DNA of 63,452 nucleotides, counting the filler, from Chrysochromulina tobinii (taxonomy: Eukaryota), in the NCBI GenBank assembly GCA_001275005.1. It is 4 parts of 4 records of this genome, joined end to end, with 100 filler letters (N's around TTAATTAATTAA, not from the genome) between each part and the next. Parts side by side here need not be neighbours in the genome. Positions count along the whole stretch, not along the records: positions 34,855 to 48,473 come from JWZX01001358.1; 3 more parts are not named here. One strand, written 5' to 3'. A program made the position numbers and the translations under genes. This document shows, piece after piece, positions 22,594-48,573 of this stretch. The notes beneath the pieces are model-generated. The model saw nothing but the letters and a program-made list of their open reading frames with translations. It searched no databases and was not told the DNA's origin. Position 1 is the first letter of the stretch. The number at the start of each line of letters is the position of its first letter.

Positions 22594-23560
22594 CGATTCT
22601 TGAACTCAACGACTGATGCGAATGCCTGAAGTCACTCGGTCTCGCGCTCTCGCCTCTCGCCGTCTCGCGTTGTCTGCATACGGTCATTGTCCAACGCATA
22701 GTCCGATTAAGGCCGCTGTAACCGTACGTGATAACGTTCATCTAACGTTCATCTCTTTAACAACACAAGACTTTCATCATTAAACAACGTTAACGTCGTG
22801 GTACGTGGAACTCAAAGTGCCACCCTCGACCGTCCGCATCAGCCAGATCACATGTACACATCGCAGATCGCACCGCGAGGCCATACGGCGCCATGCGGCC
22901 ATGGCATAACATAACGTTGTAGAGCGGCCCACGTGACGCGCCATACCAACGCGTGTAGGCCCATCGCATAGGCATAGACTTCCGCACACCGTCACCGACA
23001 TCGTAGTGGATATTGGCTTAGCGTCCACATGCGCCTCGAACATGCGCCCCTCTCTAGGGCCCTCTCTCTCTCTCGTGTTTGCTATTGCTTTTTCGCTTGT
23101 CTTAGAGAGGAGACTCGACTATTGTCGTGCGCGCGTGCGCGTCCGCGCGGTGGCCCACTGGAGGGACGGGCGGACGGCCGATGAGCACGACGGTGCGTGT
23201 CGTGTGGTCCGGCGTCGGGTGTTGCCCAGCGGGGCGGGGCTACAACCCAGGGCTACAACCTACATCCCGTAGCGCGTTGCGCGTAAGCGGAAAGTGGTGC
23301 GCTTCTATTATTGTCTGAATGACTATACGACGCGGTCCGGGGCGGACACGCGGGACGCCAGGGCGTGGGTCGACCACAGGCCTACTGCCGGTCGCGCATG
23401 TCGGCCGCAATGGGTCGGCACCACTAGTCGCGGACCGACGGGGGGGCGCGTCCCCTCGTGGGGCAACTTTTACAACTTGATTACGAACTAGGCAGCAGCA
23501 AGGCAGTCAAATAATGCACATAATGCAAGGGTACCAATCGACAGATCTCGGCACGTAGGC

Positions 23561-23660
23561 NNNNNNNNNNNNNNNNNNNNNNNNNNNNNNNNNNNNNNNN
23601 NNNNTTAATTAATTAANNNNNNNNNNNNNNNNNNNNNNNNNNNNNNNNNNNNNNNNNNNN
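23561..23660. other. Assembly gap with artificial TTAATTAATTAA linker
   Basis: 44 N + TTAATTAATTAA (23605-23616) + 44 N. Confidence 0.98.
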
Positions 23661-26600: not shown

Positions 26601-27666
26601 ACCGGCAAATCTGCTTGGCGGCCTCGGCCTGACCATGAGCGCCGAGGGCGTCTTGCCGAACACGATTCGCATGCCCGCAACAGATGGCATCCAGGAACGC
26701 CTTCCTGCGATGCCTGGGCTTCGGCGGCCTCGGGACGGCTTGCCCCGAAGCACGCGCGCCCCCACAGGGATTCAGGGTCCGGTGCAAGGCATCCAGGAGC
26801 GCATTCCCGCAATGCCTCGTCCGAAACCAAGCGTCCCGCCAGTGTCGCCGCCTCCTTCTCCACCCGAGGGAACTCTAAAGTCCGTGCTCGAGTCCAAGTC
26901 CGGACTAAAGTTGGACACGCGCCTACAAACTGTCAGCAAGGTGCTGCCCAACAATCCCATGGCGAAGCCCGAGCCCCCCCTGGCGTCCGAACCACCAGTA
27001 TGGGAGATGCGCAGCCATCAAGAGATTATCTTCGGGGCTCTGCGCGAGCATACCCTGGTGTCCGCAGTGACGTCGACGCTTTATGGTGACAGGCCCAATC
27101 TCTCGAGCGTGGCGCAGGCCGCGCAGTTGCTGTGGTGCACGCTCCTTGGCTCGCTGTACCTCTCGACCGTCCAGTTGCGGTACGCATGGCTTGGCGCCAC
27201 ATGGAATCCAGCCACTGACAGTTTGCCTGACGGATCGAAGCCAGAGCTCAGCGATCGCCTGAGGAATGTCTCCTCAGTAGCGATGGCTGCAGCTATTGTG
27301 TGCTGTACCTGCATCCTGGGCGCGCGCTGGCTCTTTCTGCTCGCCAATCGCGTCAGCACGGTGCTACCCGAGCAGCAAGGCAAACTCATCTATAACTACA
27401 TGTGGAGCATCGTCGGCCTCGTTTGCGCATCCCTGGCCATCGGAGCTGTGTCCATGTCGGCCAACATGGACGTCACGAGTGCGCGCGAGGACATTATCGT
27501 CGGCTGGATTCTGGCTATCATCGTGCAGTGGCTACTCATAGAGCCACTGATGGTCGCGGTGCTCGCCAGCTGCGGGCTGCTGCTCAAGTGGCTCACCACG
27601 TTTGATGACGTGGTCATTTTGCCTGAGGCCCCGGCCACCAAGAATGTCAAGGCCAAGCCCCAATGA
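23661..27666 (+). CDS. Large Pro/Ser-rich cell-surface protein with EGF-like domain, GPS-like motif and C-terminal multi-TM region (PKD1/REJ-like); 5' truncated, frameshift at C9 run 24528-24536
   Basis: PPPSPPP repeats; CSNHGVCHKGKCLCRAGYGGRSC; CHFWDVTTSQWRQEGV...VRC; TM ITVLILLILDL; LREHTLVS followed by about four TMs. Confidence 0.7.
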
Positions 27667-34283: not shown

Positions 34284-34754
34284 GGGTGGACTCATGACGG
34301 TGTTCTGCCAGCGAGGAGTTGCGCGTTGTGAAGGGCGTCCACCACTCATGGACCCTGCTCGCCCTAAGTTCATTGATAAGTTCACCTTAGCGATGCATGT
34401 GCGGGCGGTTCGAGGCAGCAGCGGATGCATGCATCGAGGTGGGCGTATGCGTATGGATGCAAGCATCGAGCGGTGGGTTTATGGTGTCGTCGGTCTCGTC
34501 ATTATTTAACATTATTTATAAATGAAAATGAGAACGGTTGAGTTCGTGGAGACAACGGCTTCACGTCAGTACAGGAGCGGAAATAGAAACTGCGCTCTGT
34601 ATTCTATGGAATCTGCTCCGCCTACGTAGGTAAGCCCTAGTATTTCACTCGGAAACACGAAAATGTGGGTCCCTCTCGGCTTGAACCCAAGAGCATGCCC
34701 AAGAGGCTCCTCGGAAACTCGGAAACTCGGAATCTGGAATTAGGGCGGCCATCT

Positions 34755-34854
34755 NNNNNNNNNNNNNNNNNNNNNNNNNNNNNNNNNNNNNNNNNNNNTT
34801 AATTAATTAANNNNNNNNNNNNNNNNNNNNNNNNNNNNNNNNNNNNNNNNNNNN
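34755..34854. other. Assembly gap with artificial TTAATTAATTAA linker
   Basis: N run with linker at 34799-34810. Confidence 0.98.
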
Positions 34855-36131
34855 AGGCGATCAGACGGCATGAGGTACCTCGACGCCCTCGGGCTGCCCT
34901 CCACACGCACAGGCACTTGGCCCATGAAGACGATGGGCACGTGCAGGTGCTCCTCGCCCGGTGGAGGCTGATGGCCGAGGATCTGCGGGTTGGTTGGCAC
35001 TACGACCCACTCGACATCCGCCGAGTCTACGAACCCCATCGCGCGTTTCGAGACCTTGATCTGCGTGCCGTCGGCGTCGCGAGTGAGCGCCACCACGTCA
35101 CCGGGCATGAGGACCTCGTCGGGGTCATGGCGCGGCATCCACTCGGCATGGTCCGCCTGGTGACCTTGCAGCCTCCCGTGGATCAGACCTTCGCCGTACT
35201 GCCCAACGGTCAGCTCCTCACCGATGTGCACCGAGCCATCGACGCGTAAGTCGCCTGGGATGACCTTAACCTTATCATCAACTGAGCTCGAGCCAGCATC
35301 TGAGCTCGAGTCCGCATTGACCTTGCGTTTCTTGTTCATGTCGGGGACCGAGTGAACGAGTTTCGGACCAAACAGTCTGAGCTTGATTCCATCACGGCCA
35401 TATCCGCCTTCCCGTTCCTTATTGAGAGGCATGCCTCGGAATTTGTCGCTCCCGAAATCAGGGTGGCCTTCCAGAAGCGCTAGCTGCCACTCGCCCACCT
35501 TTTTGGGGTTTGGGGTATCCTTCCCAGGCGAGCAGCTGGCCCGCTTCACTGCGATCAAGTCGGCGAATTTGTTGACAGTGTGCGAGTCCGCGCCACTGGT
35601 TTTGACTCTTTCATAGTCGCTCTCTCCGATGTCGCCCATATCTTGCCCGTCGCCCTCTACGAAGAAGACGTGTGGCTCAGACTTGTGGACCAAGTTGGCA
35701 TGTTTCAGGCTCGGCACCTCCAAAGCGCCCCCCTTTGCCAATCTGCTCACGAGGAGCAGTTTCGCGTCCTCTGGCTTGATCTCCCACGGTTCTTTTCTTC
35801 GGATGAAGCCAAGGATCTCGCTCAAGCGCTGATCCCAGCTTGGAATCGGAATGTTGCCAAGGACATCGCTCCAGTCGTGTGAGAGGGGTTGCGCTACCGA
35901 GCCGAGCTGCGGGTTGTTGTTGATCGCGGGCAGCCGCGAGGAGGTGGAGCGGACCAGGGCGTGCAGGCCGAGCTCAGCGGAGGCCGCCATGTCACCACCA
36001 CCAGCACCACCAGCATCACCAGCGCCACCAGCACCGCCACCACCCAAGGTCTGGAATGTTGTTACCATGGCAGCGCCAAAACCGAGTTCATCGATCATTT
36101 GAGGGTCAAAATCGTTGGGTTCGTCGCTCAT
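34855..36131 (-). CDS. Protein with NLS and peptidase-G2-like intramolecular chaperone autocleavage domain; 3' end lost in gap
   Basis: KKRKV at 35319-35333; GDLRVDGSVHIG; ADHAEW..PGDVV..PTNPQILG..VFMGQVPVRVEG..LMPS. Confidence 0.7.
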
Positions 36132-36404
36132 TCCTTGACCGTGATGGACGTCCGCAAACAGCCGCAGACAGAAGCGTCGGAGAGCGCGGAATCGTACGGC
36201 CGTACGTACTGAGCCGTGTACGTTTTGGAAAGTATTGATTTCTGAGTTGTTTTCGGATTCTTAGGCGGCTGAAAAGGAATTCATGGGAATTGGAAAAAAA
36301 CTAAACTACTTCGAACTAGCCAATCGGGTGGCTTTGGGCCCGCAACTTATCGATCGGCTGCCGCAACCGTGCTTACAGAAGAGGGGCACGAGAAGACGAG
36401 ATAC

Positions 36405-36452: not shown

Positions 36453-36756
36453 ACGAGATACGTATATACTCGAGTACGAATAACTGTCGCGCGACCATGA
36501 ACAGATGGTGCATGCACTCGTGGTCGGACAATTCCCCTACCGCAACCGTCCAACCCGAAAAACCAGCTTTCGGACGCTGTGCGGCAACGCGCACGCATGT
36601 GCTGCCTCGTGCGCGCTACATCACAGACGCGCGGCGGAGCACGGAAGCGGGCTCGTGATTCTCGTGCGCGAGCCAGACGGCCATGACTCAATGCAAAGTT
36701 GCGATGACGCCATTCCTATCGATTCGCCCGCGACGACGCCTTGTCCGCAAGCAACA

Positions 36757-39700
36757 ATGCTCCTCGGAGCATTGGCGTGCATCGTGCTAGCCCTGCACCA
36801 CGTCTTGCGGCTGCCTTCACAACGTCTTGCGGCTGTGCGCGCTGCGGTTCCGCCCACGCTCGTGCTGCGCCCTGACACGCACAAGAAGCATGCGCTGCGC
36901 AAAAAGGAGGAGGAGAGGGAGGAGGCTGCTCGGGCAGAACGTGCGGCGGAGCAGTCGCGGCTGCTGCTGCAGTCCGAACAACGAGTTGCATTGCGTGAGC
37001 TCATTCGGGCTGGTCAGAAGCGCGAGGCGGCACTCCTTCTCCAGAACATGGCGCGCGCGAAACTCCTTCCCGATCAAGCCTCATACGCTGCCTGCCTCGA
37101 AGCTTTCCTGGCACCACGGATGGAGCACAAGCTGATCGTGCAGCTGGCTGCGCTGATGCGTTCCTTCCCCGTGCCGCTCTGGCCGGGCGCCGCCGAGGCG
37201 TTCGTCACGTCCACGGCCGCGCAGGGCAGCTGGCACGACTGCCTGGACTGGTGGCGGGAGCTCGAGGCGTCGGACGAGGGTGCTCGAGCCCCTGTCGTGT
37301 GCGCAACGGTCCAAGGCGCAGCGGTCGTGTGCGCAACGGTCCAAGGCGCGGCGGTCCAAGGCGCAGCGGTCCAAGGCGCGGCGAGTGCGGCGCGGGAGGC
37401 CGCACTCCTTGCCATGGTCAAGCTTGAGCGCTGGGCCGATGCGGAACGAAACTTGCTCACCTCGGCGCTCGACACAGGAGCGTCCACGGCAGCCGTGACG
37501 GCAGCTGGCTATCGGACTCTGCTCCGCGCGTGCGCCGAGGCGTGCGCTGAGGCGAACGTCAAGGCGAGCGCGAGCGCCGAGATGAGCGCCAACGTCCGAG
37601 CGGCGGCGGCGCTCGCCCGGTGCGTCGTCTTGGGCGCGTGTAGCTCGGGGGTGGCCGATGATGGCATGCTGCGCGAGGCGCTCGCGGCGAGTGCGGCGAG
37701 TGGCGAGTGGGCACAGGGCCTCGACCTCCTGAGGAAGACGTGGCCGGACGGAGCAGCCTCCGGAGAGTGGCCACCACGGGCACAGGCACAGGCACAGGCG
37801 CAGGCACAGGCGCAAGCGCAGGCGCCAACACAGGCGCAAGCGCAGGCGCAAACGCAGGCACAGGCGCAGGCGCAGGCACAGGCGCGGGCGCAGGTGCTGT
37901 GCGTGAGTGCGCGGCTACACGCGGGCGTTGGCGACCTCGACGGCGCGAGACACGCGCTGCGCCGGGCGCGTCACCTCGCGCGGCGGGTCGATGGCGGCGA
38001 GGGCGGTGGCCTGGGCCTGGCCGCGTCGGATCTGGAGGCTTTGATGCTTGCATGCGCGCACCAAGGGCGGTGGCGTGATGTGCGATGGCTCCTGCGTGCC
38101 GCGCCCGCGAGCGAGCAGTACACGATCGCCTCCACAGTCGTCGCTCTGGCCGCATGCTCTACCGGCACGACCGAATGCTCTACCGGCACGCCATTCCGCA
38201 GCGTGCGCCGCCAGAGGCTCGCGCAGCTCGCGGCTGCATGCGCGGAGGCCGTCGAAGGGCGCCGTCCTGGGCGCGATGGGCCTCTGCTGGCCGCGCCCAG
38301 GACGGCGCCCGCTTCGGACGAGATCGCGCCCAGGACGGCGCCCGGTTTCGTCATGCCGCTGGCGGTGCGCCCGTGGGCATCGGCGGCGTTCTGGGTGCGC
38401 CTGCAGGTGGTGCTCGGCGCGGCGCCCAGAGCGCCGCCGCGAGCGCCGCCGCAATCCAACTCGGGCAGAGGGGCGGACCCGGCGGCGGCGACGGAAGCGG
38501 CGGAGGCGGCGGCCGTGGAGGCTGTGCGCATGCTCAGCGTGCATCATCGTGCCGGGCTCGAGGTGAGCGCAACGGCTCTCGAGTGCGTGCTTCGTGCGGC
38601 CGCGCCGTTCAGTGCGCTGCAGGAGCACATCTGTGAGCTGTACGGGCTCCTCGAGCGCCAGCTGGGCGCCCAGGACGGCGCGGCGCGACCCGACGCCGAC
38701 GTGTGCGAGCTCGTGCTCCCCCATTACGAGCGCGCGAAGCGCTGGCGAGAGGCGCTCGCGCTGCCGCACGTGCAGCCGTCAGCTGAGTGCTTCTCGCGGG
38801 CCATCGAACGAGAATGCAATCTCGAGGCATGGCTTCGGATTGCCGAAACTCGCTCCGACGCGCGAGGCGCCCGCGACGGCGCGAACGGCGCCCGCGACGG
38901 CGCGAATGATGCCCGCGACGGCGCGAACGGCGCCCACGAAAACGCGCGGCGTGCCGAGCGGCGCACGGCCGCCATCGCGCGCTGGCGCGAGCACGTGCTC
39001 GTGGGCGCGCCAGGCACAAGCGCGGTCGTGGGCGCGTGCGGTCGTGAGGCGCTCAGGGCAGCGCTGCGATCCGTGCTGCAGCTCGAGGCCTTGTCCCCCT
39101 CGAGCGAGGGGACGCAGCAAGAACGGCTCGAAGACCAGCTGCTCAAGACGCTGCTCAAAGGGACGCCCACGACAGCGCCGATCGGGACACGTGCCACACC
39201 AGCAGCGTCCTCTGACGTGGCCTCCCGCGCGCCCGCGACAGCGCCTGCGACGACTATGCCGACAGCGGAGGCCCGAGCAATGGTGGCGGCGTTGCCGCGC
39301 GGCGTCGCCTCGAAGATTGCGTACCACCAACTCGGGCGGGAGGCACTTGAGCGCGCCGCGGCGCTCGTCCGGCGAGCTCAGGGCGAGATCGAGATCGGGC
39401 GAGCTCAGGGCGAGGCGTCAGGAAGCGGTGGAGGCGGCGGGATCGGCGGCGTTGAAAAGGCTCGCGCGCTCGGTACGGCGCGTCGGCTCGACGGCGGCGC
39501 CTACAGTGCTCTCGTCCGTGGGTGAGCGATGATTGCCTCCCTCATCAGCGCTCTCGTCCTTGGGTATGCAGCGATGCGTGACGAGGCGCATGCCAGTGCT
39601 CACCACGGCGCTCGGTCTCCCCACAGGTACGCAGCGATGCGTGACGAGGCGGTGGCCGCTCGGTTGGCCCTGGAGGCGTGCCGGCTGGGGATCCCCCTCG

Positions 39701-41149
39701 ACGCGCAAGCCTACCTTGCCGCGCTCGCGTGCGTGCGCACGCCCGCCGACTTGAGCACGCTTGTCGCGGGCATGTCGGCCACTCCGCGGCTGCGCTGGCT
39801 ACGCTCGTACGCCGATGCGCCCGTCTCCTCCGTGCTCGCCCTCGCGGGCACTCTGGGTGGCACGGGGCGCTCGTTGCCTGCGCTCCAGAACGCGACGCCC
39901 GCAGAGGTACAGGCAGCCCTCCAAGCGTTCGCCCCCAGCATGCAAGTGCTCACCACGGCGCGCGCTCTCCCCACAGGTACAGGCAGCCCTCCAAGCGCTC
40001 GCCATGATCGAAGCGAGCGTTGGCGGCGTGAGCGCCTTGCTGCAGGACCTGCGAGCAAGCGGCGTACAGGTAGGCCCCGCGTCTCGATGCATGCTCCTCT
40101 CGACGGCGATGCTCGAGGGCTGGGTGCAGCAGCAGCTCGCGCTCCACGTGTGGCTCCCGCTACTCGCGCCGCGGGGCGACGCGCTGCTTGAACTACTCGG
40201 CCCGTCGCTACGACTGGTCGAGACGCCAACCGGATCGGGCTTCAAGGGCGCTTGGTGCTTCGATTGGCGCGCGCCCGAGACGACGCACCCAGTCCTCATT
40301 GCGTGGATGAAGCTTCGTGGGCAGACTGATCCGAGATTCGCGCCCACGGCGGCGGATGCGGGCCTGTGCCCGGTCGACGTGGGCGTCCATGTCCTTGAAG
40401 GCATCCTCCTCTCGCTGCAGCACGTCTCGCCGCCCCGCGCCCTATCGGCCGCCGCCCGCACGGCCTCAGCCGCCTCCCGCACGGCCACGCAACCCCCATC
40501 GGGCTCCATCTCCGGCTCGATCTCCGGCGCGGAGCTGCCGCGCTCGCCCACGACGGCGCTCACGTGGCGCCGAGACCTCTCCGAGCTGCAGCTGGCGCTT
40601 CAGGCGATCGTGGTGCGTTACGAGGCGGCCGCGAACCCCACAGGTGGGCGCGGGCTCGGCTTCGCGGCTCCGTGGGGTGCGGCCTCCGCCCCGGTGCCCA
40701 CCCCGGCGCTCGCGTCGCTCCGTGGCGCCCTGCGCGATGTGCTGGTGGCGCTCGACTTGCACAAGGGCATCCGATTTGGCGCCCAGTGCCAGACCGCGAT
40801 GGTGTACATCAACGCCCTCGAGGGCATCTTTGCCCTTCTCGGCACGGAGCCGAGCATGGCGCAGGCGGCGGCGGCGGCGGCGGCGGCGGCTGGGTCGGAG
40901 CCCGCCGGCGCTGTGGGGTTTGGCCGTCGAGGCGCCGTAACGGGCGCGCGGCGTGCGGCGCCGAGCAAACAAGGCAAGAATCGGGCGGCGGGCACCGCGA
41001 TGACCAAACGGGAGCGTAAGGCGGTCGACGATCTGACGCGCGAAGGGTGGGTCCATCGCGGAGCAGTCGACCCGTCTCCGCAGCGCACGACCGTTGCCGT
41101 GGCAGCGAGTCTGTCGCTGCTGCTGCTCGATGTTGAGATGGCTAGATAG
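36757..41149 (+). CDS. Large degenerate PPR-like helical-repeat protein; introns 39522-39626 and 39907-39976; start uncertain
   Basis: AALLLQNMARAKLLPDQASYAACL; YRTLLRACA; spliced YSALVRG|YAAMRDEAVAARLALEACRLGIPLD; the two introns join three ORFs in frame; (AQ)n tract ~37780-37893. Confidence 0.65.
39522..39626 (+). mobile_element. Introner-like intron 1 carrying an internal copy of its spliced junction
   Basis: GTGAGC donor, CCCCACAG acceptor; 39546-39588 matches the spliced exon junction at 40/43; 3' arm shared with intron 2. Confidence 0.6.
39907..39976 (+). mobile_element. Introner-like intron 2 with a 29-bp duplication of the downstream exon
   Basis: 39905-39933 matches 39975-40003 at 28/29; arm GCATGCAAGTGCTCACCACGGCGCGCGCTCTCCCCACAG. 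Confidence 0.6.
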
Positions 41150-41440
41150 TGCGGCTTCTTCTTGGGGCGCAAGGCCACAGTCTCCCGCTCTCCCCGATGT
41201 TCACCTCGTGACATCCGTCAGATCCTGATTGTAGGACGTAGGTCTCTGTCGTCTAAAGTCTTGTCGTGACGCGAGCTTTTGCAGAAGCACGGATAGGTCT
41301 TGAAAAAACTTGAGGTGGTTTCAAAGCGTGTTCGAAAGCGTTGTGTTGGACCGTCGGACGAACAGCCACCAGGACTCCCGTGTGCCAGGACCACGTCCAA
41401 GCGCAAGCGGAACGACTTGAGCGTGGCTCTTTTGGCCACA

Positions 41441-43738
41441 ATGCCTCCGAAGAAGCGCTTTTCATTCATCAATCGCGTGCTGGATGTGCGCAAGGGAGGC
41501 CTCAGCAGTGACGAGGCGATGGAATTCGTTGCGAAGCTCAACGAGAAAATTAACCAACAGTTGCCGGAGGGTGAGGGAGATCGGTGGTTTGAGCTCTTCA
41601 AAGAGTTCGATGGCGACGCGTCGGGGCTCCTCACTTTTGATGAGCTCAAGTTTGGCATTCGCACCCAGCTCCTCATGGACGAGAGCGAGCTTTCCAACCA
41701 GAAGCTCAAGGCGCTATGGATCACGCTCGATGAGGACGACTCTGGCTTTGTCGAGTCGGGCGAGTTCGGCCGCTTCATGAAGCGCGAGGCGCCGAAGAAT
41801 AAGGACGAAGAGCGCCGTGAGCTCCTTCGTCAGAGCTCCAGGCAGAAGCGCGCGTCTCTAGAGAAGGACAAGCAGCTCCAAATCGCAGATGCGATGCTGA
41901 CGTCGTCTGTGCCGACAGCGGAGATGCGCGCCGAGCTTGCACAGGCTGGCGTGGCACTCCCGAACGATGAGGAATTGGCGAAAATGGCCACGCAATTTTC
42001 CAAGTGGACGAAACTCTATCTGCCCGACACTCACCAGGGGAGTGCATGGATAAAGGTCATACAGATGGTCGGCGACGACATTTCGGGCCTGCTAACCTAT
42101 GACCAGGTGCGGCGCGTGGTGCGTGAGGTCTTCAAAGTGAAGAAAGTGGTGTGGTCTGAGAACATGATTAAGGCGCTATGGTGCACGCTCGATGTGAAGA
42201 ACGCCGACAGCATCCCGACGATGGAATTCGGTCGCTTTGTCAAGCGCGCCGACACGACGACCACACGCGCACCGGGATGGACGCAGAAGCAGTGGACCGG
42301 AAACTCCGATCGGCTCCTTGAGGTGCGCCCAGGCGGTTTGAGCGCAGAGGAGTGCAAGAGCGTTGCAGCCACGATCAACAGCAGGGTCGACGAGATGATG
42401 CCCGGCGAAGACTGGCTCTCTCTCTTCAAGGCCATCGACGAGGATGCCTCGGGCCTGCTGAGCTTCGACGAGTTCAAGCAGGGCATCCGCGAAAGCCTCA
42501 AAATGGGGACGACGGAGCTTTCCGACGCACAGCTCGGAGCGCTTTGGATCTCGATCGACGAGGACGACAGTGGCTACGTCGAGACGGGCGAGCTCTACCG
42601 CTTCTTGAATCGCATTGAACCGAAGGGGAAAGACGAGCAGCGGCGCGAGCTCATCCGACAGAGCTCCAAGCGCAAGCGGGCACTCCTGGAGAGGGCGCAA
42701 ACGCAGGACATTTTGGACGAGAAGTTAAAGTCGAGCATGAAGACAACGGACATGAAGGCGGAGCTCAAGGCCAAGGGAGTCCCACTGGCCACCGAGGACA
42801 CGATGAGGGAGGCTTCCTTCCGCTTCGTTAAGTGGACGAAAACGTACCTTCCGGACGCGCACCAGGGCGTTGCTTGGATGAAAGTGTTCAAGGAGGTGGA
42901 CAACGATGCCTCAGGCCTGCTCACCTACGACGAGCTACGGATCGTCATCCGCCAAAAGTTCAAGGTTCCGTCCTCGGAGTTTTCAGAGGATGAGATCAAA
43001 GTCCTGTGGTGCGCGCTCGATCAGGACCATTCGGACTCGATCAAGCTCGTGGAGTTTGGGCGCTTCATCAAATTGATGAACGGAAAGATGACCAATTTCT
43101 TCCAGAAGACCGAGGACTCAGCAGCCGATCGGCTCTTTCGCGGGCTGTCTTCACTTGAGAAGGGCGCCTTTTTCCAGAAGCACTTGGGGAAGCTGGAGGA
43201 GTACACCGGGCCGAGCACGCTCAAGCTGAGCCCGCGCGTAGTCACTCAACGTCGGCGGCTCCCAGACCACCTAATCCGACCTGCATTTCGACCGAAGACG
43301 TCGATGCCAAACATAACGGAGTTGTGGACGCCCAAATCGGCACGGGCGGCGACGACTCCGGCGCCCGATGCCGAAGGCAGCGTCAGTGCTCGCGGGCCCC
43401 CACGGCAGGTGGAGCCGCCGCCACACCCAGCGTTGGTGCGCTCGCCGGGGCAGAGGTACGTGGAGGAGGGCGGCCCGTGGCTGCCACATCTCGCGTTGCC
43501 CACAATGCAGAGGAGCGTCAGGAACCTCGCTTCAGACGAGCCGCTGTGCAGCTCCTATCTACCACGCCACGGCCTCGTCCCTCGCGCTTTCGGCGATAAC
43601 TCGTACTACGTCCAACCTCCTGTGCCTTCGAGTATAGTAGCGGGGCCAAGGCTGGTGGAGTGCCGGCCGGGCCGGTCCCCTCATCCTGCGGGCGCAGGGC
43701 AGCCGACTCACATTTACTGTATCCTGGGGAAGACGTGA
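41441..43738 (+). CDS. Multi-EF-hand calcium-binding protein with an internal tandem duplication
   Basis: FDGDASGLLTFDE, LDEDDSGFVESGE, IDEDASGLLSFDE, IDEDDSGYVETGE, VDNDASGLLTYDE, LDQDHSDSIKLVE. Confidence 0.9.
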   Translation: MPPKKRFSFINRVLDVRKGGLSSDEAMEFVAKLNEKINQQLPEGEGDRWFELFKEFDGDASGLLTFDELKFGIRTQLLMDESELSNQKLKALWITLDEDDSGFVESGEFGRFMKREAPKNKDEERRELLRQSSRQKRASLEKDKQLQIADAMLTSSVPTAEMRAELAQAGVALPNDEELAKMATQFSKWTKLYLPDTHQGSAWIKVIQMVGDDISGLLTYDQVRRVVREVFKVKKVVWSENMIKALWCTLDVKNADSIPTMEFGRFVKRADTTTTRAPGWTQKQWTGNSDRLLEVRPGGLSAEECKSVAATINSRVDEMMPGEDWLSLFKAIDEDASGLLSFDEFKQGIRESLKMGTTELSDAQLGALWISIDEDDSGYVETGELYRFLNRIEPKGKDEQRRELIRQSSKRKRALLERAQTQDILDEKLKSSMKTTDMKAELKAKGVPLATEDTMREASFRFVKWTKTYLPDAHQGVAWMKVFKEVDNDASGLLTYDELRIVIRQKFKVPSSEFSEDEIKVLWCALDQDHSDSIKLVEFGRFIKLMNGKMTNFFQKTEDSAADRLFRGLSSLEKGAFFQKHLGKLEEYTGPSTLKLSPRVVTQRRRLPDHLIRPAFRPKTSMPNITELWTPKSARAATTPAPDAEGSVSARGPPRQVEPPPHPALVRSPGQRYVEEGGPWLPHLALPTMQRSVRNLASDEPLCSSYLPRHGLVPRAFGDNSYYVQPPVPSSIVAGPRLVECRPGRSPHPAGAGQPTHIYCILGKT

Positions 43739-46989: not shown

Positions 46990-48473
46990 ATGCCGCTCGC
47001 CCAAGTGAGCCTCGCAACCTTCTTAACGTCGAAGCCCGCTAAGGAGAACGCTCGCCCACAGGCGGAGGACAGCGATGAGGACGCTTTTACCACCAAACCG
47101 CCGCCGTCCAGCACGCTTCAGAAGCCATCCGCTGAGCCTCCGGCTGCCTCGCCTGGCGGTGCGGGCCCAAGCGGTGCGACAAAGTCCACAGAGCCAGCTG
47201 CCGCGGACATGGCGGTGCGTACCAAGCCACCACCTGGCTGGACTAAGGTGATGGATTTCGGCAAACTGAAGGGCTATCGCTCACCCGATGGGCGCAAGGC
47301 CATTTCTCTTCCAGCTGCTTGGCGCCTGTACGACGAGCAGCAGCATGCAGGCCCAAGCGGGGCGGGCATAGGTGGTGCAGGTCTAAGCGAGGCGAGCCCA
47401 AGCGGTGCGGGCACTCATCCTCACACAGGCTCCAGCCGCAGCCCCGGCCCAAGCACAGGATGCGACAAAAGCATCTCGAGCCAGGCGGCCGCCAGTAAAC
47501 CTTCGTCCAGCCAAGCAGCCGCATCAGCCACAGCCGCCGCGCCGGCCGGTAAGGCGGCCGCAGCAAGGGAGAAGCGCGGAGCTGGCACTAAGCCACCGGC
47601 TGAGAAAATCAAGCGTGCCAAGGCTGCGCCTCTCTCCGCGCAGCTGCCAGCGGCGCCCACGAAGGGCGCTGACGAGGACCCGCCGCCGGAGCCTCTGCCT
47701 CCCGCCGAGCTCGACGAGGGCTGGCGCGACGAGGGCCACGAGTACCTCGGGCGTCGCGTCGCGCGCACCTTCGAGGGTGGCCTGACGGTGGTCGGCCGGA
47801 TCACGCGTTGGCTGCCCGCCGGCGACGGCGAGGACGAGCCGCCGCTGTTCCATATGAATCACGACGACGGCGACGAGGAAGACCTCGCGGAGTACGAGGT
47901 CATCGACGCCTTCGAGCTCTACAAGACGACGCCCGAGGCGACGAAGCTCGCACAGGCCAAGGCTCGCGCGGAGGCACGGGCGGCAAAGGAAGAGGAGAAA
48001 GCCGTAAAGGCGGAGGCGCGCGCCGCCAAGGCGAGCGAGCGCGCCGCGGCCGCCACGACCGCCGAGGCCAAGGCGGCCGCCGAGGTGGAGGCCAGGGCGG
48101 CACGGCTCGAGGTCAAGGCGTGCCGCGCCGCAGCGCTCGCAGCCAGGGCCGACACGAGCGGTGCCGAAGCGGCGGTCGCGGAAGCACGGGAGGAAGCAAT
48201 GGCGGCCAAGGCTGCGTTTAGCAAGGTGGCGGCGAAGGCGAAGGCCATGGCCGCCTCCGCACGCGAGGCCAAGGCCAAGGCGGCCGAGGAGGCCAAGAAG
48301 AAGCGCGAGGCAGAACGCGGGCCGCGCGGCGCGAAGACCGCTGCCCAGTTCTACACCGAGGCGGAGCGTCTCAAGCTGACAGCGACGCACCCAGGGCTCG
48401 ATGCGCCCGCCATTGCCGAGATGATCAAGGCGCAGTGGAAGGTGCTCGAAGAGGCCGATAAGGCGCCCTACAA
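46990..48473 (+). CDS. Chromatin protein with MBD-like, Tudor-like and HMG-box domains; truncated at gap
   Basis: PPPGWTKV..GYRSPDGRKAISL; YLGRRVARTF..GRITRW..HDDGDEEDL; PRGAKTAAQFY...IKAQWKVLEEADKAPY. Confidence 0.7.
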
Positions 48474-48573
48474 NNNNNNNNNNNNNNNNNNNNNNNNNNN
48501 NNNNNNNNNNNNNNNNNTTAATTAATTAANNNNNNNNNNNNNNNNNNNNNNNNNNNNNNNNNNNNNNNNNNNN
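48474..48573. other. Assembly gap with artificial TTAATTAATTAA linker
   Basis: N run with linker at 48518-48529, followed by a poly-C contig end. Confidence 0.98.

Follow-up and report, generated by a model that had tools for sequence, protein, structure and literature searches.

Two introns of Chrysochromulina tobinii and a family with a shared acceptor arm between long exon copies: possible spread by templated copying

The host gene and its two introns

The window, which is the whole stretch of DNA analysed here, comprises 63,452 nucleotides of the Chrysochromulina tobinii assembly GCA_001275005.1, with a GC content of 57-72% along its length and 264 N in total, the N runs lying at about 23560-23660, 34750-34860 and 48470-48570. 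The C. tobinii genome is described, in the part of the genome paper available to us, as having 59 Mb, 63.4% GC and about one intron per gene (PMC4580454). Inside the window lies a gene interrupted by two introns, the features of which are collected in Table 1. Taking out intron 1 and intron 2 yields, on translation, a stop-free frame of 1496 residues. Two clusters of relatives of the encoded protein were found; their representatives, P0062 and P0063 (37-38% identity), are single proteins, collinear with the host protein over both junctions and without extra residues there. The longest contig of P0062 measures 9.6 kb, and a cluster-mate of P0063 sits on a 14.2-kb contig. Proteins and contigs together suggest that the genomic frames of these relatives are uninterrupted at both intron positions. 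The Pfam search of the three host exons returned no family at E<=1. In a feature search, P0063 was placed nearest to PPR clusters at 0.96, with a low recognition value, and the PPR-like nature of the host protein is a lead only.

The host gene is adjoined by an 813-codon frame without a stop (41297-43738, plus strand), rich in EF-hand motifs, which is 99% identical to P0001, a protein whose 90%-identity cluster includes C. tobinii KOO33997.1. On the other side, a frame of 485 codons on the minus strand (34803-36260) has an end with a GDLRVDGS...HAEW...GDVV-like stretch, which presumably recalls phage tail-fibre chaperone domains. Elsewhere in the window, an imperfect 30-nt direct repeat occurs inside open frames at 26686-26715 and again at +102, with the word CCCCCACAG between the copies; this is probably a protein repeat.

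Table 1. Features of the host gene and its introns (positions of the window)
Feature	Position	Strand	Basis
Host gene, 1496-aa Ala-rich protein once both introns are removed	36484-41149	+	
Exon 1, frame open from the upstream stop	36484-39521	+	ORF list; putative 5' limit
First copy of the 20-nt duplication astride the intron 1 donor (18 exon nt + GT)	39504-39523	+	18/20 identical to 39546-39565
Intron 1, 105 nt, composite (donor, GAT-type spacer, exon-junction copy, arm)	39522-39626	+	RNA joint in X15; relatives collinear
GAT-type spacer, a second, likely younger donor insertion	39524-39545	+	Sequence; same layout at other loci; L046/L099 insert
Intronic copy of the exon 2 start	39563-39588	+	25/26 identical to 39626-39651
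Arm copy 1 (putative branch site, pyrimidine tract, acceptor)	39588-39626	+	Pattern matches
Exon 2, 280 nt	39627-39906	+	X15 contig spans between both joints; aligns to P0062/P0063
Duplication copy 1, 29 nt, gives the donor GT at 39907	39905-39933	+	Repeat comparison
Intron 2, 70 nt, GT..AG, phase 0	39907-39976	+	RNA joint in X11, X15, X16; in DNA of X1, X9; frame restored
Linker, 4 nt, non-exon, fuzzy 5' flank of the arm	39934-39937	+	Sequence comparison
Arm copy 2: GCATGC boundary, putative branch site, pyrimidine tract, acceptor AG 39975-39976	39938-39976	+	Pattern matches
Duplication copy 2, acceptor AG and start of exon 3	39975-40003	+	Repeat comparison
Exon 3, ends at the stop codon	39977-41149	+	ORF list; 50% identity to P0062 and P0063

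A reading of the DNA made earlier from the sequence alone, here called the sequence-only reading, had proposed that intron 2 is bounded by a 29-nt repeat. The repeat is indeed present, with 28 of its 29 positions identical and a single T/C difference at 39929/39999; when the 3-kb region was simulated 200 times with an order-3 Markov model, no local repeat of that length had more than 25 matches. The resemblance that had been seen between the sequence separating the two copies and the upstream intron holds for the arm, but the 41 nt in question consist of a 4-nt linker plus the arm. The final AG of the arm belongs also to the second 29-nt copy. The two arms of the gene, 39938-39976 and 39588-39626, lie 350 nt apart and differ at 3 of 39 positions; they are the only two matches in the window at <=3 mismatches, while 0 are expected by chance. 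The last three bases of the linker are the second commonest pre-arm triplet among the matches listed. The CTCAC motif at 39949-39953, judged by motif and position, is the putative branch site, with the branch A predicted at 39952.

Splicing was followed in six RNA runs and two DNA runs, all in the form of assembled contigs; runs X17-X20, which contain next to none of the sequence words, were left out. In three of the six RNA runs (X11, X15 and X16, three studies by run coding) contigs join across exactly 70 nt with GT..AG ends, and the removal of 39907-39976 restores the reading frame, both as had been proposed. The contigs of X12, X13 and X14 did not provide spliced bridging of intron 2; in X13, unspliced contigs with a depth of 2-3 cover intron 1 and also the final 13 nt of intron 2. 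Both DNA runs, X1 and X9, carry intron 2, and the spliced joint is absent among the joints listed for them. The spliced RNA retains the second-copy base at the lone mismatch, and the joint is ambiguous over 23 nt. Intron 2 (39907-39976) is a genuine intron of the GT-AG type.

For intron 1, one contig of X15 skips 105 nt, again with GT..AG ends. The clean gain proposed for the family does not hold for this upstream intron, which by its RNA joint is a composite. Two simpler models, a 63-nt 'duplication plus arm' intron and a pair of introns of 27 and 63 nt, were discarded, as the RNA skips 105 nt and the relatives have no extra residues. Direct repeats are reportedly a setting for false splice joints, and the intron 2 joint does fall inside a 23-nt repeat, as would be expected if the introns were artefacts of a reverse transcriptase or alignment jump between direct repeats. 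The skip, however, restores a frame collinear with the relatives, and the intron 1 joint is a 105-nt GT-AG skip with a 3-nt overlap and not a 63-nt jump between 25-nt repeats. An artefact is therefore unlikely.

A family of introns sharing the acceptor end

Loci of the family were defined by an exact two-part arm pattern in metagenome contigs. This pattern is present at no fewer than 130 loci (at least 130 in metagenome contigs, against 0 matches in viral contigs), so the acceptor arm of about 40 nt is a multi-copy family, as had been supposed, and is not confined to the two copies of the window. The matches, at least 145 from several assemblies, were collapsed by downstream sequence to 126 and, after near-duplicates and short flanks had been dropped, to 120 sites. 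A 741-nt stretch matched 527 and 515 contigs in two DNA runs, and in both the summed depth of the arm was about 900x that of the flanks, a value which is no copy number and is taken to give only a range, from several hundred up to about a thousand. The number of copies per genome is thus roughly several hundred to 1000.

Among the matches listed, the 120 distinct sites have unrelated flanks, and 97 of them carry, immediately before the arm, a copy of the start of the downstream exon, as opposed to 9/120 in the same-locus control. The copy begins <=3 nt from the AG at 85/120 sites among the matches listed, and the first copy supplies the GT, which bears out the expectation that other members of the family would also be flanked by duplications. 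At these 85 sites among the matches listed, the copies are 13-50 nt long (median 30, IQR 24-34), a broader range than the 25-30 bp initially suggested, with a median identity of 96%; 21 copies are perfect and 14/85 are gapped. The proposed (A)G/GTA target (the slash marks the junction) had likewise to be revised to G/GTR, since GTG outnumbers GTA (58 and 34 of 120) and only 33/85 sites have AG before the copy. Among the matches listed, the AG is followed by GT at 104/120 and by GC at 7/120 sites, and the copy is preceded by G at -1 in 71/85, by RG in 43/85 and by AG in the 33/85 cases already given. The inferred intron lengths of 57-119 nt, among the matches listed, are free of a modulo 3 preference. 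Clean flanks of 120 nt together with a clear frame signal were available at 55 of the 85 sites, and with copy and arm removed 52 of these 55 were frame-concordant; together with the RNA joints, this agrees with the spliced, frame-neutral outcome put forward in the sequence-only reading. The first six bases of the two copies differ at 20 sites, where the donor consensus is closer to the intronic copy in 12 and to the exonic copy in 3. One host exon of the family (locus L103) resembles what we take to be an RNA polymerase alpha-like subunit (RPB3/AC40 motif), a conserved gene.

In the published accounts available to us, known introners of the same splice logic likewise import the acceptor, take the donor from duplicated host sequence, let the exon continue with the donor letters and occur in many copies. 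They differ in having fixed duplications of 3-9 nt, usually terminal inverted repeats, and similarity over the whole intron, whereas in the present family about 40% of the intron is a host copy of 13-50 nt and only the 3' half is shared. Gozashti 2022 defined introners by at least four similar introns in non-paralogous genes, which are exceeded by the 120 sites found here; the similarity reaching both intron ends, which belongs to the same definition, is absent, because the 5' part of about 37 nt (the median donor-arm distance) is site-specific. The definition further asks for a position that lacks an intron in relatives; the relatives' proteins suggest this for the two introns of the window, and at one family site an older intron is present. 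A classical introner, moved as a cut-and-paste MITE with a fixed short target site duplication, would share the carried acceptor and the donor derived from the duplication, the known introner pattern in the accounts available; yet the duplications are long and variable (13-50 nt), none of the inverted repeats listed (the best 25 of 27) links the ends of the intron or of the arm, and the RNA structure is nothing unusual (z from -1.3 to +0.25, the value of -1.3 telling against a MITE). The Rfam search matched no family (best E=5). Taken together with the splicing artefact discussed above, we regard a classical introner as highly improbable.

The nearest listed case, by the description available, may be Emiliania huxleyi fam24, also from a haptophyte, which co-opts the 5' and carries the 3' splice site, has longer-than-usual direct repeats and measures about 70 nt (PMC12130899). 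Compared by description only, it differs in having 5 copies, 10-bp terminal direct repeats, an unknown class and two-end similarity (PMC12130899). Gains attributed to staggered double-strand-break repair in Daphnia pulex similarly show an adjacent exon-end direct repeat and later internal duplications in young introns, but their repeats are 4-12 bp and a shared acceptor family is not described in the parts of the paper available (PMC4202315). Repair-mediated duplication in vertebrates also captures nearby sequence, but the available text reports no intron families (PMC2671141).

The family shares with the Rogers model the presence of an exon copy in the intron and the use of that copy's GT. 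This model reportedly explains intron gain by tandem duplication of an AG/GT exon segment, with a potato case as an example. The difference is that branch site and AG here come from a foreign shared arm and that AG precedes the copy only in the minority of sites given above. Tandem duplication would derive both splice sites from the duplicated exon segment; instead, the copies are separated by a foreign arm.

C. tobinii is in the genome list of the 2022 study, whose search required similarity at both intron ends, and is in none of the other supplement sheets searched; in the part of the supplement of the 2025 survey available to us it scored 0 introner families (PMC12130899). Marine Chrysochromulina MAGs do have introner families in the rows available, which list the target site duplication as N or '?', a comparison by description only. 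No published description of the arm family was found, including with the arm core as text, in a search that lay mostly outside subscription journals. The literature drawn on, in the parts available, also includes PMC9860276, PMC11282704, PMC12403724 and 10.1101/2020.10.14.339549.

Boundaries, clustering and remodelling of the arm

The proposal that the arm is a discrete mobile cassette could not be maintained, given a hypervariable tract, a fuzzy 5' flank common to other copies and microhomology at the joint. Among the matches listed, the pyrimidine tract exists in 107 versions in 120 arms. The GCATGC element, which lay outside the search pattern, is kept at 110-114/120 per position, as against 63/120 one base upstream, and conservation falls sharply 5' of it in the 120 arms among the matches listed. 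The palindrome at this 5' boundary extends over 6-12 nt and is only 6 nt long in 51/120 sites. The linker ranges from 0 to more than 20 nt across sites. At least 7 upstream nt are common to 34/5938 between-locus pairs, compared with 0 in the control, and several arms have a longer upstream flank in common. Ten sites are free of a linker, and in 5/10 of them the three exon bases at the joint equal the usual flank of the arm, against a background of 8% (p=6e-4). A hairpin-opening (P-nucleotide) origin of the linker was dismissed, since covariation across the palindrome is absent.

A palindrome next to a fuzzy flank could be the recognised end of a tiny non-autonomous element moved by an HUH transposase, Replitron- or Helitron-like. 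By the published description, the insertion signature that appears most similar to that of the arm family is the one of Replitron-1 and Replitron-N1 of Chlamydomonas reinhardtii, with a short orientation-specific target (RG in Replitron-1), variable duplications, a fuzzy parental end and a nearby palindrome, and a Replitron protein is noted at one C. tobinii locus (PMC10288648). The geometry of the arm is the same: one end is precise and lies at the motif, and the opposite one has the palindrome and a fuzzy flank from the parent. Replitrons, however, have terminal direct repeats, measure 0.9-3.6 kb, avoid genes and, in the text available, are not reported to make introns (PMC10288648), whereas inspection of the arm ends gave no terminal direct repeats and the arm has 40 nt against about 910 nt of Replitron-N1. 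Moreover, the hypervariable tract adjoins the precise end, the palindrome is reduced to its minimum in the 51 sites mentioned, and the 3' end at L094 differs from the family end. Movement of this kind seems to us decidedly unlikely.

Retroposition of intron 3' ends, in which a LINE or Penelope reverse transcriptase would copy intron-containing RNA by target-primed reverse transcription and leave a precise AG/GT 3' end, a long variable target site duplication and a short 5'-truncated insert, fits the precise 3' end, the variable duplications of 13-50 nt, the 5' microhomology and the longer upstream flank common to several arms. Long variable duplications are on record for non-LTR elements (126 bp for R9, a median of 900 bp for Dualen) in the part of the source available (PMC9977147), and a nascent transcript as template would explain same-strand local copies. 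Against it, arms end at the acceptor directly against the exon with no poly(A) or simple-repeat tail, although the search pattern fixed that end and could miss tailed forms, and the 5' boundary at GCATGC is far sharper than random truncation (110-114/120 against 63/120 one base upstream). We consider retroposition rather unlikely; it overlaps with templated copying if the template is RNA.

The arms are clustered. A second full arm at another site within about 770 nt was found at 18/108 loci, while about 1-2% would be expected, by our own arithmetic, if about 1000 copies were evenly spread over 59 Mb. Arms separated by <=2 edits make up 5/43 same-contig pairs (from 3 contigs) compared with 0.3% of between-contig pairs, and a fourth near-identical case is given by L070 and L008, neighbouring sites about 520 nt apart (by overlap) with an identical arm and 8-nt flank. 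A general excess likeness of neighbouring arms was unsupported in the rank test (p=0.11, and p=0.97 with a looser finder), and the window's own arm pair is at about the 9th percentile of similarity; the excess is confined to a near-identical subset of neighbours. One comparison returned 0 opposite-strand arms, and mixed strands occur in 2/30 multi-arm loci. Of 20 partial arms, 16 are found upstream of a full arm at a distance of no more than 200 nt.

Contrary to the sequence-only reading, the gain is not always clean, for about 6/85 units stand behind an older-looking acceptor and 14/83 have a further duplication just upstream of the copy. At L094 (around 373-600), a partial arm with the flank and tract start of the neighbouring intron lies behind an older acceptor, and a duplication straddles that acceptor. 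The matching L048 (around 473-560) has the added unit alone, the old intron having gone by deletion or assembly collapse; an overwritten interior was rejected for this pair because L094 has the old intron plus the added unit. A simple-looking unit can thus sit at an old intron position, as the comparison of L048 with L094 shows. Empty-versus-filled polymorphism of the simple unit was not seen among the overlapping locus pairs (five viewed).

At most of the 14 sites the second duplication lies astride the donor, its two copies being separated by a low-complexity spacer of GAT type. In 12 of these 14 composites the donor-side duplication has 13/389 mismatches, a rough figure because the aligner caught repeat sequence at two loci, against 34/396 on the arm side, the value for simple sites being 103/2094. 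On inspection, the donor-side duplication matches the intronic and not the exonic copy in four informative loci. A 40-nt GAT-repeat donor insert with a short donor-region duplication is present in L046 and absent from L099, and is therefore polymorphic. The lower divergence of the donor-side duplication and the difference between L046 and L099 indicate that a second, later kind of event hits new donors.

These sites are also the ground on which a rewriting of old introns may be weighed, by which spliced-cDNA conversion or local repair would swap the 5' part of an intron for the start of the downstream exon while the common acceptor end is kept or homogenised. The unit at the pre-existing intron position of L094/L048, the copies behind an older-looking acceptor and the exon-junction copy contained in composite introns all speak for it, and rewriting happens at some sites. 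As an explanation of the family it is improbable, because the relatives appear uninterrupted at both intron positions of the window, judging by their proteins, and because the younger donor-side duplication of the composites, with its match to the intronic copy at four loci, fits two successive DNA-level insertions. Most simple units probably mark new intron positions.

Other arrangements were also noted. The tandem-repeat spacers in the composite introns of L083, L095, L118 and L033 often resemble words of the adjacent exon and look as if synthesis had stuttered on local sequence. At L090, L061, L056, L047 and L130, two to four stacked partial arms alternate with short exon-like fragments, while whole units of exon copy and arm stand head to tail at L013, L037, L041, L050, L057 and L092, which are either real tandem duplications or assembly effects.

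Templated copying and what it would mean for intron gain

The reading we prefer, with a probability of about one half, is that the family spreads by templated copying from existing introns through two microhomology switches. Starting from a break within an exon, DNA synthesis would proceed for about 30 nt beyond a G/GTR site and then switch by microhomology to an existing intron of the family, just upstream of its GCATGC; this template may sometimes be the neighbour in the same gene. The branch-site and acceptor end of about 40 nt would be copied through the AG, and synthesis would rejoin the G/GTR site, which is similar to the parent's own junction. Events of the same kind would also remodel introns already in place, either through a unit placed after an old acceptor or through a GAT-repeat insert at the donor. 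The order of the synthesis steps and the use of existing introns as templates are what the arrangement of the copies points to, and the bias towards donor-like targets may arise from microhomology with the parent's AG/GTR junction plus selection.

Several features would follow from templated copying: duplications of variable length, a fuzzy flank inherited from the parent, a target that resembles a donor, clustered arms and the occurrence of partial arms. It is held over a fixed cassette because of the 107 tract versions, the fuzzy shared flank, the microhomology at the joint, the clustering with near-identical neighbours and the additions to older introns. The sharp 5' boundary at a palindrome of 6-12 nt, however, stands against it, as it suggests an enzyme-defined end, unlike plain repair. 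A further step, which we hold to be doubtful and put forward tentatively, is that the introns self-propagate without a transposon: the 3' end of an existing intron, read from the nascent RNA of the gene itself, would serve as template for repair at donor-like sites, and every intron so formed would in turn act as a template, giving on the order of a thousand introns in one alga.

The origin of new spliceosomal introns is a long-standing question. In the literature available to us, genome-scale intron gains are ascribed to transposons whose duplications are short and of fixed length, and no mechanism is assigned to about 72% of introner families (PMC12130899). The present family represents introner-like intron gain with an unusual signature that is likely free of a transposase. 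Its hundreds of copies each record their own birth in the length of the duplication, the microhomology at the joint and sometimes the parent next door, and since the genus has a sequenced and cultured species, the mechanism is directly testable. In haptophytes, the long repeats at the splice junctions also bear on spliced alignment and on the prediction of genes. As the similarity within the family does not extend to both ends of the intron and the survey gave C. tobinii 0 families, similar half-host introns may be overlooked elsewhere.

Summarizing, templated copying, if true, would be a route to new introns without a classical transposon, and transcript-templated self-propagation, if true, would be a process of intron gain invisible to current introner searches.
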